Positions 1 through 64,000 of a DNA stretch of 64,000 nucleotides are shown in pieces. Source of the stretch: Escherichia phage Turkey5. The notes beneath the pieces were generated by a model. The model had not been told where the DNA came from. It was given only the letters and a program-made list of their open reading frames with translations, and made no database searches. A program made the position numbers and the translations under genes. The stretch lies in the sequence record PQ471516.1; one strand, written 5' to 3'. The number at the start of each line of letters is the position of its first letter. Within the stretch, counting starts at the first letter, position 1.

Positions 1-40
1 GGACGGATATTTTTAAAAATTTTTTCAGTACTGAATTTTG

Positions 41-119
41 GGCGTAACTATGCACCCGGTGGGCTTGAGTCTTTCTCGACTTGATGGAACTATTATACAG
101 TACTGAAAAAATAAAGCAA
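41..119 (-). ncRNA. candidate ORF-less mini transcription unit (CCCA-NN-GGGTGC core)
   Basis: minus-strand TTGCTT(114-119)-16-TATAAT(92-97) reads into core at 41-65; no ORF. Confidence 0.35.
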
Positions 120-148
120 TACCATAAACGCAAAAAGTTTTAATTAAT

Positions 149-240
149 TTGCTTGTTATCCTGGGGCGTATTGTGGTACTATAGTTCAGTACTGAGAAAG
201 TGCGTTTACCTGCTAGGGTGCGGGAGTGTATCCTTTTTTT
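149..240 (+). ncRNA. candidate ORF-less mini transcription unit (GGGTGC core)
   Basis: weak promoter TTGTTA(153)-18-TACTAT(177); core CTGCTAGGGTGCGGGAGTGTATCC 210-233 then T7 run. Confidence 0.3.
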
Positions 241-255
241 ATATCTTGAATTTTG

Positions 256-334
256 GGCGTAATTCCGCACCCTCTGGGGTTTCCGCTTTCTCGCGTCTAT
301 GTAGTAATTATACGCTTTTTCAGGATCAAGTCAA
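256..334 (-). ncRNA. candidate ORF-less mini transcription unit (GGGTGC core)
   Basis: minus-strand TTGACT(329-334)-16-TATAAT(307-312); core at 256-279; convergent with unit 149-240. Confidence 0.35.
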
Positions 335-614
335 TACCTAAAAACAAAATAATTGAAAATAATTTAACGCGTTTAAACGGCCCGTAAAGCCCTGGAATGA
401 TTGGAATGGTGCAAATGTATAGCTTAGGTGTATTAATGCGTTAGAATGCGTCTGAGGCCGTTTTACGGGGTATAGGGATGATTTGGTGGATTGATTCAGT
501 ACTGAATGATAGTACTACTATATAGAAAGATAGTTCCCCTGGATGGTTGCAGTACTGAATGATAGTTCCCCTATATAGAGAGAAAACTATTTTAAAAGTA
601 CATGTAGAAAGTAC

Positions 615-673
615 TTGCAAACTAAGTTTAACGGCGTATAATGTTTTACATCGAGAGCGGGAACACTTCCCGC
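615..673 (+). promoter_or_regulatory. early promoter + 5'UTR hairpin cassette
   Basis: TTGCAA 615, TATAAT 637, hairpin GCGGGAA-CAC-TTCCCGC 657-673. Confidence 0.8.
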
Positions 674-697
674 TACATATTACGAGAGATTAAAACG

Positions 698-1060
698 ATG
701 GCGACTCAAATCACTAAAATTATTGCTAACCTGGTTAACTTCCGCGACGAGATGAAAGATCTTCCGGCTGAAACGGTAAAAATTCACATCGCAGCTTATC
801 GGGAACTTATTGCAATGTTGCCGCTTAAGCGTGAACAATACGCCGCTACCGTGATGCTTGATGCGATGATCCATAAGATGATCGCCAGTGATTTGACGAT
901 GGTTTATCAGTACATGGGCGAAAAATTCTCGGTGTATAGTAAACCAGTACCAGGAATGGAAAGTACAGAAGTATTACACGGTTTAAATTTAAAACAAGAT
1001 GCATGGGATAATATGCCTCGTTTCCTGGTATGGGCTGACAGTGGCAAAATTTACGAATAA
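698..1060 (+). CDS. hypothetical early protein (120 aa)
   Basis: ATG 698 after GAGAG RBS; track start 641 lies inside promoter/hairpin. Confidence 0.75.
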   Translation: MATQITKIIANLVNFRDEMKDLPAETVKIHIAAYRELIAMLPLKREQYAATVMLDAMIHKMIASDLTMVYQYMGEKFSVYSKPVPGMESTEVLHGLNLKQDAWDNMPRFLVWADSGKIYE

Positions 1061-1074
1061 GTTTAATAAAGTAC

Positions 1075-61511: not shown

Positions 61512-61774
61512 TGGATATACAATCTCAATTACAATTGTTAACAGTGCTTGAAGATTCTGCGTTTCAGGTTGTATCAGATATAATCAAATCACTCCCACCT
61601 GGAACTAAAGTACGTGTTAGAGAGAAGAGTTATGATACTTTCGAAATAGTTGAACAGGAATTAACTGTAAAAAAAGTAACTTATTATGACTCATCATTAT
61701 GTATTCAGTGTGAGGATAAAGACGAGATGTTATTGTATTATAATCAACACACAGATATAGAGGTAATATCATGA
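61511..61774 (+). CDS. hypothetical protein (87 aa)
   Basis: TAATG junction (track start 61499). Confidence 0.7.
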   Translation: MDIQSQLQLLTVLEDSAFQVVSDIIKSLPPGTKVRVREKSYDTFEIVEQELTVKKVTYYDSSLCIQCEDKDEMLLYYNQHTDIEVIS

Positions 61775-62913
61775 CACATTTACAAATATACGAAGACTTA
61801 ATGCACTTGTGCAAAACAAATGAAGCATTTTATTATGTTGATCATAAAAGTCCGGCTGGTGGTACATACCGTGTATTCTCATATCGTCTGGCTTCTTATA
61901 CTGATTTCAGTCTTCCCAATGCACTGGAAACACGTGGTTCTATGTGGGAAATTGATGAAGATGGTGAAATGATTCGTTGTGCAGCAAGAACAATGGAAAA
62001 GTTCTTCAATGCTTACGAGAACCCATTCACTATGTTCAGTTCAGATACGACTTGTGAAGATATTTCGGTAGCGATGCCTAAACTTGACGGTTCAATCATC
62101 AGTACATTTCGTGATAACGATGGTGAAATCCGTTGTAAATCACACACTTCCTTGTCATCTGACCATGCAATTAACAGTACTCGACTATTGAACGAGAACC
62201 GTAATTTGTATGATTATGTAGACGAAGCAGACCGTTTGGGTTATACTGTGAATCTGGAGTATACAAGTCCAGAGTACCGAATAGTATTACCATATCAAGT
62301 AGAACAATTATTTGTACTCAATGTTCGTCATCGTAAAAGTGGTGAGTTGTTATGCGGAGCAGCACTACGTAAGAAGTTCCCTTGTTTAGCACAATACAGT
62401 ACTAATATGACGGGTAATAACATATGTTCATCATTTCCGGTGCGTTCTACCTTCAAAGAAAGTGTAGAAGAAGTCCGTAAAATGGTTGACATTGAGGGGT
62501 TTGTGTGCATCCTAAATAATGGTACAATGTGTAAAATTAAAACGGATTGGTATTGCTCCTTGCATTTAACAAAGGATAGTATTATCATAGATTCCCATTT
62601 ATATGAAGCTGTATTAAATGGTAGTAGTGATGACCTAAAGCAGTTGTTCAGTACTGATGCATATGCTATGCAGAAGATATTAAAAATGGAACAACATGTA
62701 TTTGGATGCTATAATGCTTTACAAGATGAGGTAGAAAGCTTCGTCCAACAATACAAGCACTTGGAGCGAAAGGAATTCGCAATGAAGGTTCAGGAATGTC
62801 TTAAGAATGAACTGAACCGTCAGGGCTTGGCCTTTGCGTTGTACAACGGTAAAGTGGTGAATTATAAAGAAACTTTATTGAAGTACTACAAAGATGTACT
62901 AAAGGATTTTTAG
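61771..62913 (+). CDS. rnlA: RNA ligase 1 (T4 Rnl1/gp63-like)
   Basis: ATGA overlap; N-terminal third aligns by eye to T4 RnlA (YRVFSY..ASY.D...PNALE.RG.M...MEKFFN..ENPFTM) with the ligase lysine in PKLDGS; IEG(F/Y)V...IK.DWY also shared. Confidence 0.9.
   Translation: MTHLQIYEDLMHLCKTNEAFYYVDHKSPAGGTYRVFSYRLASYTDFSLPNALETRGSMWEIDEDGEMIRCAARTMEKFFNAYENPFTMFSSDTTCEDISVAMPKLDGSIISTFRDNDGEIRCKSHTSLSSDHAINSTRLLNENRNLYDYVDEADRLGYTVNLEYTSPEYRIVLPYQVEQLFVLNVRHRKSGELLCGAALRKKFPCLAQYSTNMTGNNICSSFPVRSTFKESVEEVRKMVDIEGFVCILNNGTMCKIKTDWYCSLHLTKDSIIIDSHLYEAVLNGSSDDLKQLFSTDAYAMQKILKMEQHVFGCYNALQDEVESFVQQYKHLERKEFAMKVQECLKNELNRQGLAFALYNGKVVNYKETLLKYYKDVLKDF
61855..61862 (+). other. Chi site GCTGGTGG
   Basis: exact octamer inside rnlA; the only one I saw beyond 20 kb. 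Confidence 0.9.
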
Positions 62914-62939
62914 TACTAACTAGCCTAGCACAAGGAGAA

Positions 62940-63197
62940 GTGATGGCTAAACCTAAGTATAAAAATGACGGTTCCCTTTCTCCGACCGAGTTCAGGAAAA
63001 TACAACAAGATATCGATGAATTACAGCACAAACGCTCAAAGAAAGGTGTGAAGATTAGTAAGAAAAGAATCGAGAATACTTTTGGGTGTAGTAGTACTGA
63101 ATACAAGAAGAAGAGGAAACCAAAAGACGTGCAACCGAGAATACATGATGTGTCTCGACATACGTCTAAGCGTGAAAACAAATTCGATCCACTATAA
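62940..63197 (+). CDS. highly basic protein (85 aa)
   Basis: AAGGAGAAG RBS; K/R-rich throughout; minus ORF 62801..63181 rejected. Confidence 0.75.
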   Translation: MMAKPKYKNDGSLSPTEFRKIQQDIDELQHKRSKKGVKISKKRIENTFGCSSTEYKKKRKPKDVQPRIHDVSRHTSKRENKFDPL

Positions 63198-63206
63198 GGA
63201 GTTCAT

Positions 63207-63437
63207 ATGAAAGTTGAAGTTCAGCATAGTATTGTACAAGATATGTCCGTTGTGAAATTTCTATCATTGAAAGATTATTTCAGATGCATCAAGTTCCTAG
63301 AAGAATCGCAACTACAGTGGACACCGTTGAAGTACAGTTCATCCAATGATACAGCCAGTATTCGTTGTGATGAATCTGTACTTGTGAAAATCTCTAAGAG
63401 ATTTGGGGTAGGTAAAGTTAATGAGCACAGTAAGTGA
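63207..63437 (+). CDS. hypothetical protein (76 aa)
   Basis: AAGGAG RBS. Confidence 0.75.
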   Translation: MKVEVQHSIVQDMSVVKFLSLKDYFRCIKFLEESQLQWTPLKYSSSNDTASIRCDESVLVKISKRFGVGKVNEHSK

Positions 63438-63675
63438 TCTAAAATACTACAACAAAACTGCGGAAACGTTTATTAATCATTTATATGATGAATTTAGTCG
63501 TATCCGCAAGGAATATACTGGTAAATGTATTTTATATTGTTCTTATCATAGTGGTGGAATTGAACGTGCTTACATTACTAAAGTAAAGTTTTCTGATGAC
63601 TATCAATTACTCTTTGAATTAGATAATTGTTTCGTTATTGAAGCTAGTTTGATAATGGATGTACTGGATAATTGA
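63421..63675 (+). CDS. hypothetical protein (84 aa), possibly family C-related
   Basis: 17-nt overlap; ...SYHSGGIERAYITKVKF. Confidence 0.7.
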   Translation: MSTVSDLKYYNKTAETFINHLYDEFSRIRKEYTGKCILYCSYHSGGIERAYITKVKFSDDYQLLFELDNCFVIEASLIMDVLDN

Positions 63676-63681
63676 GGACAT

Positions 63682-63996
63682 ATGAATAAAGAACTTGCAC
63701 ATGAAGGTATCGAAAAGTTAAAGTACATTGAAAAGGAACTAATAGAATCCATTGAATCAATGGTCGAAGATTACGTTTTCGATTTTAAGAAAACATTGAT
63801 TGGATGTAAAGTTAAATGCTGGGATCATACTATCAGAGAATGGTTCAGTACTATTATTCTTGATGTTAAAGTATCTCGTACTGCTATTGGTAACTTAGTA
63901 AATGGTGAATGTTTTGTATACACTGAATACAATAACGGAACACGACACCTTTCAAAAGGATGGCACAGACTCGAAGATGTAGAATTCATCGAGTAA
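63682..63996 (+). CDS. hypothetical protein (104 aa)
   Basis: GAGGA RBS. Confidence 0.75.
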   Translation: MNKELAHEGIEKLKYIEKELIESIESMVEDYVFDFKKTLIGCKVKCWDHTIREWFSTIILDVKVSRTAIGNLVNGECFVYTEYNNGTRHLSKGWHRLEDVEFIE

Positions 63997-64000
63997 TAAG

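Follow-up and report, generated by a model that had tools for sequence, protein, structure and literature searches.

Chi (GCTGGTGG) and the DNA uptake sequences of Neisseria and Haemophilus are short words that recur genome-wide, within genes too, and mark own against foreign DNA. The SlmA sites of E. coli (GTGAGTACTCAC) and the Noc sites of B. subtilis (ATTTCCCGGGAAAT) are scattered palindromes, each read by a dimeric protein (PMC3020112). In cyanobacteria, HIP1 (GCGATCGC) and the alternate HIPs (highly iterated palindromes) are iterated palindromes of cellular genomes, and the creation of such sites by methyl-dependent mismatch repair is a model rather than an observation (Elhai 2015, PMC4390886). 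Here we describe an array of the palindrome AGTACT in a 64,000-nucleotide stretch of Escherichia phage Turkey5 (PQ471516.1), called the window below. The evidence best supports reading this array as a phage equivalent of the HIPs of cyanobacteria, one that is also a component of early promoters.

1 to 64000, unstranded: AGTACT array of 275 sites by exact count, 55 of them being the 8-mer CAGTACTG; extended consensus TTC-AGTACT-GAA.

An earlier note on this DNA, made from the letters alone, had claimed that AGTACT is far over-represented, and the exact counts bear this out more strongly than was claimed, with 275 sites against about 21. Its hand counts of 9 sites in 1-1200, 4 in 33001-34200 and 4 in 43000-44200 were exact. 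Markov models of orders 0, 1, 2 and 3 predict 21.3, 20.4, 55.5 and 113 sites, and AGTACT ranks first among the 4096 hexamers at each of these orders. The 8-mer CAGTACTG, which had been said to appear dozens of times where about one copy was expected, is found 55 times against 0.7, 0.8, 3.4 and 8.5 predicted at the same orders. The ratio comes near one only at order 4, with 238 sites predicted. That model is built from the motif's own 5-mers, AGTAC (432 copies) and GTACT (363 copies), each about 6-fold above the roughly 70 expected; because these counts already hold the signal, the order-4 value does not refute the excess. It would suit an excess with no function of its own, arising as a by-product of composition, of codon or dipeptide usage, of paralogous families and of promoter cassettes that have been duplicated. 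Such a by-product would also fit the promoter sites, which sit at fixed positions as copies of a few promoter types, and the sites that fall within motifs of paralogous families.

Codon-aware models speak against a by-product. Shuffling synonymous codons within genes gave 65.2±6.2 sites (maximum 85) and shuffling whole codons gave 27.6±5.1, against 204 observed, so that the genic count exceeds both nulls, with z scores from about 22 to 35. Both the choice of codons and the order of amino acids are therefore bent toward AGTACT. The fully coding sites number 203 of the 275 (3.6 per kb) and are spread over all three frames (89, 66 and 48), as had been claimed, with 72 non-coding sites at 9.8 per kb. 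Repeated promoter blocks thus cannot account for the excess, which is also found genome-wide. The contexts quoted earlier were found as well, the promoter contexts AGTACTTGCAA and AGTACTGTATAAT and, between genes, a block with sites at 23217, 23231 and 23238 and the palindrome CCCAGTACTGGG.

54399 to 54410, unstranded: CCCAGTACTGGG, a perfect 12-bp palindrome in a non-coding stretch.
23217 to 23303, + strand: densest cluster, 5 AGTACT in 87 bp, covering the ribosome-binding site and first codons of the open reading frame (ORF) at 23273-23641.

The core of the motif, GTAC, occurs 659 times in the window against about 220 expected, with A before it in 66% of copies, T after it in 55% and both in 42%. 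The bases outside the hexamer are dyad-symmetric even within genes. C stands at -1 in 49% of sites and G at +1 in 43%; further out, T stands at -3 and -4 in 47% and 43%, and A at +3 and +4 in 46% and 44%. Coding constraints are not symmetric, and symmetric flanks within genes therefore point to double-stranded DNA read by a symmetric protein. The reading we favour, at somewhat below even confidence, is that AGTACT, in its wider form TTC-AGTACT-GAA, is a selected iterated palindrome that would be recognised by a dimeric DNA-binding protein or enzyme with two-fold symmetry. Selection would keep the sites across the phage DNA for this dimeric, sequence-specific reader. It would be expected to prefer TTCAGTACTGAA over TTCAGTACAGAA.

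By DNA match the window belongs with the Asteriusvirus jumbo phages of E. coli, the PBECO4/121Q or "Rak2-like" group. About 163 ORFs were called in it, all on the + strand. The closest complete genome is that of vB_EcoM_JNE01 (OR670491.1; JNE01 below), 96.5% identical across 62.4 kb of the window in an alignment that spans the arbitrary ends of the record (310390-355583, then 1-18132). Comparisons with JNE01 cover its whole genome of 355 kb (loci L001-L008). That genome holds exactly 1000 AGTACT sites against 119 expected (8.4-fold, z=81, first of 4096 hexamers) and 233 copies of CAGTACTG against 5.8. The top flanking triplets are TTC (108) and GAA (136). Sites stand at 13-37 per 10 kb across replication, structural and minus-strand genes and at 60-67 per 10 kb in the terminal-repeat region, with a near-exponential spacing that has slightly fewer long gaps than chance.

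The excess is shared by samples from other genera, with 89 sites against 11.5 in GAP32, 119 against 12 in RaK2 and 112 against 15.7 in CBB. The sample of the related Pseudomonas phage PA5oct has no excess (3 against 14), and neither do the samples of two AT-rich phages of the same hosts, T5 (1 against 6) and Felix O1 (4 against 9). A comparison with relatives and host had been proposed. On the host side, a 50-kb sample of E. coli K-12 holds 3 sites (0.06 per kb) against 5-6 expected. The phage DNA, with one site per roughly 230-350 bp, is about 45-70 times richer.

The sites are also conserved beyond their surroundings. When the window is aligned with JNE01, 254 of 271 sites prove intact, as compared to 84.7% of control hexamers (p=4e-6). 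There were 17 gains and 17 losses, a loss at about 40% of the background rate. Orthologues shared with GAP32, RaK2 and CBB (37-47 genes per comparison, 63-69% nucleotide identity) retain 25-36% of the JNE01 sites by position, against 12-17% for control hexamers (p 3e-4 to 9e-3). Each genome in these comparisons holds 60-88 sites where 9-14 are expected. An unmaintained excess would decay at such divergence, so sites must keep arising and being retained in every lineage. The array is under purifying selection, with positional turnover between genera at constant density. An excess that runs genome-wide through replication and structural genes, persists in four genera despite turnover and loses sites more slowly than background contradicts a by-product without function, to which we give next to no credence. 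The core inference of the earlier note, a DNA-level function rather than composition, codon usage or promoter duplication, is upheld by the symmetric flanks in genes, the use of three frames, the codon-aware excess, the genome-wide spread and the conservation.

Phages are textbook avoiders of palindromes, and the claim that they usually avoid palindromic hexamers holds for this clade. Of the 64 palindromic hexamers, 22 never occur in the 355 kb of JNE01 and 6 more fall below 25% of expectation, making 28 that are purged. CGTACG and GGTACC are among the absent ones despite a two-fold enrichment of GTAC. The second most enriched palindrome, GATATC, reaches 1.7-fold. As other palindromes are purged, the AGTACT excess represents positive retention and not tolerance. 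AGTACT is the recognition sequence of ScaI-type enzymes. Avoidance of Type II restriction would deplete such a site, whereas AGTACT runs in the opposite direction, 8-13-fold up in the same genome.

One 4-mer is missing altogether. GCGC does not occur in the window (about 52 expected) or in JNE01 (234-383 expected), nor in the samples of GAP32, RaK2 and CBB (L009, L010, L011). It is normal in PA5oct and occurs 342 times in the K-12 sample. The part of the preprint by Poirot et al. (2019, bioRxiv 10.1101/712018) considered here reports GCGC as absent from five Rak2-like phages and AGCT from pandoraviruses, and ascribes the missing word to restriction avoidance. Both are, like the AGTACT array, extreme oligonucleotide anomalies conserved over divergent genomes and hosts, and one is in the same clade. 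That part of the preprint makes no mention of the AGTACT excess; in our data the excess and the GCGC absence travel together. The literature we searched gave no published description of the AGTACT/CAGTACTG excess and no methylome of these phages. What is new here is the pairing of the two traits: of 43 viral loci rich in AGTACT, 38 have no GCGC. Conversion of GCGC to GTAC by double deamination was rejected on numbers, about 52 missing GCGC against some 440 extra GTAC. Another complete avoidance of a 4-mer appeared in the Felix O1 sample (40001-60000, L139), where GATC is found 0 times against 56 expected.

The array is densest in the left third of the window. The phage vB_Ec-M-J has an annotated direct terminal repeat at 1-21525 of its genome, in which window position 1 corresponds to 1049 and position 20258 to 21424. 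The window from 1 to about 20360 aligns within that repeat and is therefore terminal-repeat DNA with many small early genes. Beyond about 20360 lies the adjoining small-gene region, which differs among related phages.

1 to 20360, + strand: partial direct terminal repeat, with cassettes of small early genes and a separate σ70-type promoter for each cassette; AGTACT densest here, 6-7 per kb.
610 to 642, + strand: example of a class 1 promoter, AGTAC-TTGCAA-N17-TATAAT, with AGTACT starting 27 bp upstream of TATAAT.
4673 to 4705, + strand: double-site promoter, with AGTACT at the edge of the -35 element (4673) and a second site in the extended -10 AGTACTGTATAAT (4693), 20 bp apart.
7600 to 7635, + strand: double-site promoter cAGTACTATTGACA-N9-AGTACTGGCATAAT, with sites 22 bp apart; repeats at 10442/10464 and 18254/18276.

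Sites in these promoters take fixed positions that overlap promoter elements. In class 1, with 22 promoters at the same spacing, AGTACT overlaps the first T of the -35 hexamer, and its 10-mer AGTACTTGCA is found again in the early regions of further Rak2-like phages (RaK2 and 121Q among them) and contigs. In class 2, with 12 promoters, AGTACT stands at -7 from TATAAT and AGTACTGTATAAT supplies the TG of an extended -10; AGTACTGNATAAT is kept in RaK2 and 121Q. A third geometry, TTGAC-AGTACT, in which the site overlaps the end of TTGACA, is found in 7 promoters. The same promoter layouts are found in 121Q, vB_Ec-M-J, RaK2 and further Rak2-like contigs. The three positions (-27, -7 and TTGAC-AGTACT) are thus conserved in other genera, as would be expected of operators. 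The promoter copies are clearly related to one another and hence are not independent events. Another repeated context, AGTACTGAAT(C/G)A, lies directly before terminator hairpins.

Because AGTACT overlaps the -35 or forms the extended -10, a reader bound there would meet RNA polymerase, and at early promoters it could switch early transcription. The sites elsewhere would load the same reader along the whole genome. We also considered a motif acting at the RNA level, which is not supported. Transcripts would be likely to start downstream of the promoter elements and so would not include the sites within them, and the minus-strand gene block of JNE01 has no coding-strand bias (67 against 54).

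The early cassettes in 1-20360 follow one order: a σ70-like promoter, TACAT, a GC-rich 8-bp hairpin, a small ORF and a terminator. The hairpin sequence varies from cassette to cassette (for example 12832-12875 and 17070-17113), and the hairpin at 12857-12875 folds at -15.4 kcal/mol with z of -3.1. We take these cassettes to recall the promoter-early-stem-loop cassettes of T4-type phages. The megablast matches to window positions 1-8000 included seven records named as Campylobacter phages, unexpected for an enterobacterial phage, and these could be mislabelled or contaminated records.

The array is interrupted twice. The earlier note had called the excess independent of context. That holds in so far as it spans genes and intergenic DNA, and fails for 20309-23216 and 26035-30926, which have no site at all.

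20200 to 20360, + strand: two 80-bp tandem copies with one AGTACT apiece (20223 and 20303), at the right edge of the terminal repeat.
20309 to 23216, + strand: island 1, zero AGTACT in 2.9 kb, with tightly packed genes for products of about 75-85 aa.
26035 to 30926, + strand: island 2, zero AGTACT in 4.9 kb, with AGTAC as dense as elsewhere.

At the local spacing of about 160 bp, gaps of this size have probabilities of about 4e-8 (island 1) and 4e-14 (island 2). Island 1 starts at the right end of the terminal repeat, directly after the 80-bp tandem copies. Its GTAC mostly takes the form TGTACT (8 of 12), and the gap is also present in JNE01, 121Q and vB_Ec-M-J, with proteins merely 36-40% identical. 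The gaps in 121Q measure 4.1 kb and 7.6 kb. Proteins of island 2 are 26-31% identical between phages and have no Pfam or functional PHROG match; the corresponding loci in relatives are L013 (25800-33384) and L014 (about 29000-37000). Recent foreign DNA was rejected as the origin of the islands. Their proteins have only distant homologues (26-40%), confined to other Asteriusviruses and related Salmonella phages; the islands are also present in 121Q and vB_Ec-M-J at 26-40% protein identity, and GCGC is absent from them too.

Island 2 differs from the rest of the array in its polarity. Together with the flanking site at 26029 it holds AGTAC 37 times (25 AGTACA, 9 AGTACC, 2 AGTACG and 1 AGTACT) and GTACT merely twice, so that the AGTAC motif is confined to the + strand. 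In the island 2 of 121Q, AGTACA occurs 41 times and GTACT accounts for 0 of 62 GTAC. The island holds AGTAC 51 times against 0 on the opposite strand in vB_Ec-M-J and 44 times against 0 in JNE01, where it is the sole such region. Island 2 thus keeps the plus-strand 5-mer but actively excludes either its minus-strand counterpart or the palindrome as a whole. Avoidance in two conserved islands indicates that the full palindrome has a consequence.

This pattern brings in a different functional unit, a strand-specific AGTAC read directionally or single-stranded by a translocase, a replication or priming enzyme, or a Chi-like nuclease regulator. The palindrome would then be the cheapest way to place the word on both strands, and island 2 a region where one direction is wanted. 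In three phages AGTAC occurs 37-51 times on the + strand of island 2 against 0-2 on the other, and with a T frequency taken as 0.3 the chance of 0 in 62 would be about 2.5e-10. The separate enrichment of AGTAC and GTACT in the window fits as well, as do the one-strand copies in JNE01 beside its 1000 palindromes, 569 on the + strand only and 479 on the - strand only. Against a directional 5-mer, the 355 kb of JNE01 show no strand skew or polarity switch apart from island 2, so that the genome-wide asymmetry of Chi- or KOPS-type words, which runs with replication or with the genes, is otherwise lacking. The flanks are symmetric outside the hexamer, and the minus-strand gene block is without bias. 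The opposite polarity of island 1 comes down to 6-8 copies of one conserved peptide motif. Island 2 is the main argument for a directional component, and no tested explanation accounts for its one-strand pattern. Overall, we consider a directional 5-mer improbable as the functional unit. Chi and the uptake words are asymmetric, orientation-dependent and have known readers, whereas AGTACT is palindromic and polar only in island 2. JNE01 has 18 copies of the E. coli Chi octamer itself on its + strand and 7 on its - strand, and CTGGTG ranks among the top hexamers of the JNE01 core region.

The first gene past island 1 is the ORF at 23273-23641 (122 aa), which has eight AGTACT in or just ahead of it, three of them at 23495-23519 beyond the cluster listed above. 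Several of these sites encode Asp/Ser-Thr runs (DSTSTK, DSTNNESTDST).

In its form the array is closest to HIP1. Both are short palindromes far above expectation in coding and non-coding DNA, in the phage in all frames, and in both the deviations are biased to the outer positions. In the window, one-base variants at positions 1 and 6 occur at 1.9-3.7 times expectation (AGTACA 100, TGTACT 47, AGTACC 33) and those at inner positions at 0.7-2.2 times. A candidate orphan methyltransferase may be a further likeness.

55185 to 55712, + strand: gene for a Dam-family (PF05869/TIGR01712) N6-adenine DNA methyltransferase of 175 aa with an NPPY motif, candidate modifier of AGTACT/GTAC.

The HIP1 likeness raises the possibility that AGTACT or GTAC is the target of a phage orphan methyltransferase, for example the candidate at 55185-55712, whose product is the sole recognisable DNA methyltransferase-like ORF in JNE01. 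The mark could be functional, as protection of the ScaI or RsaI type or as a mark of self, or methyl-dependent mismatch repair could create the sites. RaK2 DNA is reported to be methylated and resistant to methylation-sensitive enzymes (PMC3622015), and HIP palindromes co-occur with matching methyltransferases (PMC4390886). The outer-position variants are the commonest, as in HIP1, and a genome that purges Type II sites and holds about 1000 of the ScaI type would need their protection. The candidate enzyme has no solved or characterised close relative, and among viral contigs a close relative was found only in 121Q. An assignment of PF05869 as the home of non-specific adenine methylases was withdrawn, as M.EcoGII (349 aa) and Hia5 (281 aa) both carry DPPY.

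The repair route predicts a depletion of precursor near-sites. No one-base neighbour in the window counted as depleted (AGTATT 1.35, AATACT 1.33, the lowest being AGGACT at 0.71), and neither converting repair on the HIP1 model nor a very-short-patch-like repair that makes sites is supported. No methyltransferase motif was found in the 318 kb sampled from non-Rak2 loci with the same signature, including a Leclercia prophage, a set of redundant and partial genomes. Methylation alone would also leave the benefit of more sites unexplained. We regard it as a minor contender, unlikely on balance. The phage array departs from HIP1 in several respects. It belongs to phage rather than cellular genomes and is an AT-rich hexamer or octamer with a GTAC core. 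It is built into promoters, has conserved motif-free islands and shows no sign of repair that converts near-sites.

We also surveyed IMG/VR for the same signature, looking for two copies of CAGTACTG 4-34 bp apart and keeping loci with at least a five-fold AGTACT excess. This gave 43 loci, including the 38 without GCGC. The largest cluster outside the Rak2-like phages has 27 loci (GC 0.42, contigs of about 33 kb) and represents a temperate siphovirus whose terminase, portal, tape-measure and tail-J genes are of λ type. The phage is found as a prophage in Leclercia chromosomes (L136, L137), with a host GC of about 0.55; its other loci are L027, L069, L131 and 22 more from IMG/VR. The Leclercia prophage holds AGTACT at 4.3 per kb, CAGTACTG at about 4 per kb and no GCGC. 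Host DNA within 1 kb of the junction holds no AGTACT and 7-10 GCGC per kb. In the prophage 60% of sites have C at -1 and 60% have G at +1, and its coding sites number 71 against 17.7±3.9. Further small groups of viral contigs with an AGTACT excess and little or no GCGC (L021, L029/L121, L034, L104, L063 and L118) cluster neither with the Rak2-like phages nor with the Leclercia prophage.

In unrelated phages infecting Enterobacteriaceae, then, AGTACT has become or stayed enriched and GCGC has become or stayed absent, which suggests a reader in common. This reader may come from the host. It may also be a phage protein that BLASTP would miss for its divergence or small size, or one encoded in parts of the prophage outside the sample. 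JNE01 and the sampled parts of the Leclercia-type phage have in common no more than lysozymes and a phrog_953 HNH homing-endonuclease-like protein of about 210 aa. The phrog_953 gene is sporadic and was not accepted as a shared cause; it is listed in 1458 records of phages from many hosts, and other Asteriusviruses carry no close orthologue of it. The ORFs of the Leclercia-type phage without an assigned function had no match in Pfam or PHROGs.

If the reader is a host factor, an enterobacterial DNA-binding, defence or repair protein would read CAGTACTG, and phage lineages would have accumulated sites independently. The excess and the GCGC absence are indeed common to two unrelated phage types, the jumbo myoviruses and the temperate siphovirus (about 33 kb), with no shared candidate gene, and PA5oct, a Pseudomonas phage related to the Rak2-like ones, lacks both traits. 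On the other hand, T5 and Felix O1, AT-rich and on the same hosts, have no excess, and AGTACT is neither enriched nor clearly avoided in the K-12 sample. The one host protein considered here is SlmA, whose sites are also scattered over the replicon and have AGTACT at their centre. Its 12-bp site GTRAGYRCTYAC requires G, T, A and G at positions 1, 2, 4 and 5 (PMC3020112). These required flanks have 0 matches in the 355 kb of JNE01, where G is the rarest base at -1 and GAGTACTC accounts for 15 of the 1000 sites. SlmA sites also number about 50 per 4.6 Mb, against about 1000 AGTACT per 0.36 Mb in the phage. Titration of SlmA, or a phage SlmA, was rejected on these grounds, and no SlmA homologue is encoded. 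A host factor seems to us a rather weak candidate for the reader.

The two words together would also serve to tell phage from host. The AGTACT core stands at about 3-4 per kb in the phages against about 0.06 in the host sample, and GCGC at 0 against about 7 per kb. Several unrelated enterobacterial phages might use a sequence-encoded, modification-free system of self and non-self, in which genomes saturated with CAGTACTG and free of GCGC would be sorted by a reader and a GCGC-directed activity that steer transcription, protection or degradation. The one-strand AGTACA island would then show that the reader is able to act directionally. We offer this extension as speculative and consider it improbable.

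Several observations weigh against a dimeric reader of AGTACT, the reading we favour. Of the readers put forward in the earlier note (a binding or compaction protein, a modification or nicking enzyme, a transcription factor), none was confirmed. No AGTACT-binding protein was identified among the candidates examined, and a BLASTP comparison of JNE01 with the sampled parts of the Leclercia prophage gave no shared candidate reader gene. The roughly 1000 intragenic sites are far beyond the needs of any known operator system. Spacing is close to random (CV 0.89), with no phasing suggestive of ordered compaction. A symmetric dimer also leaves island 2 unexplained, where AGTACA is about 13-fold up on one strand and GTACT is excluded.

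A clade that purges 28 palindromic hexamers keeps about 1000 copies of one, under selection and across genera with different hosts. The AGTACT-rich, GCGC-free signature marks the boundary between prophage and host to about 1 kb and might serve in finding such elements. A reader, if there is one, would open to experiment a group of jumbo phages in which about 80% of the genes have no known function, and digestion with ScaI or RsaI would be a simple diagnostic. It would bear on the control of early promoters and on how these phages distinguish own from host DNA with neither a nucleus nor hypermodified bases. It would also provide a fast-growing phage model for the long-unsolved problem of HIP1.

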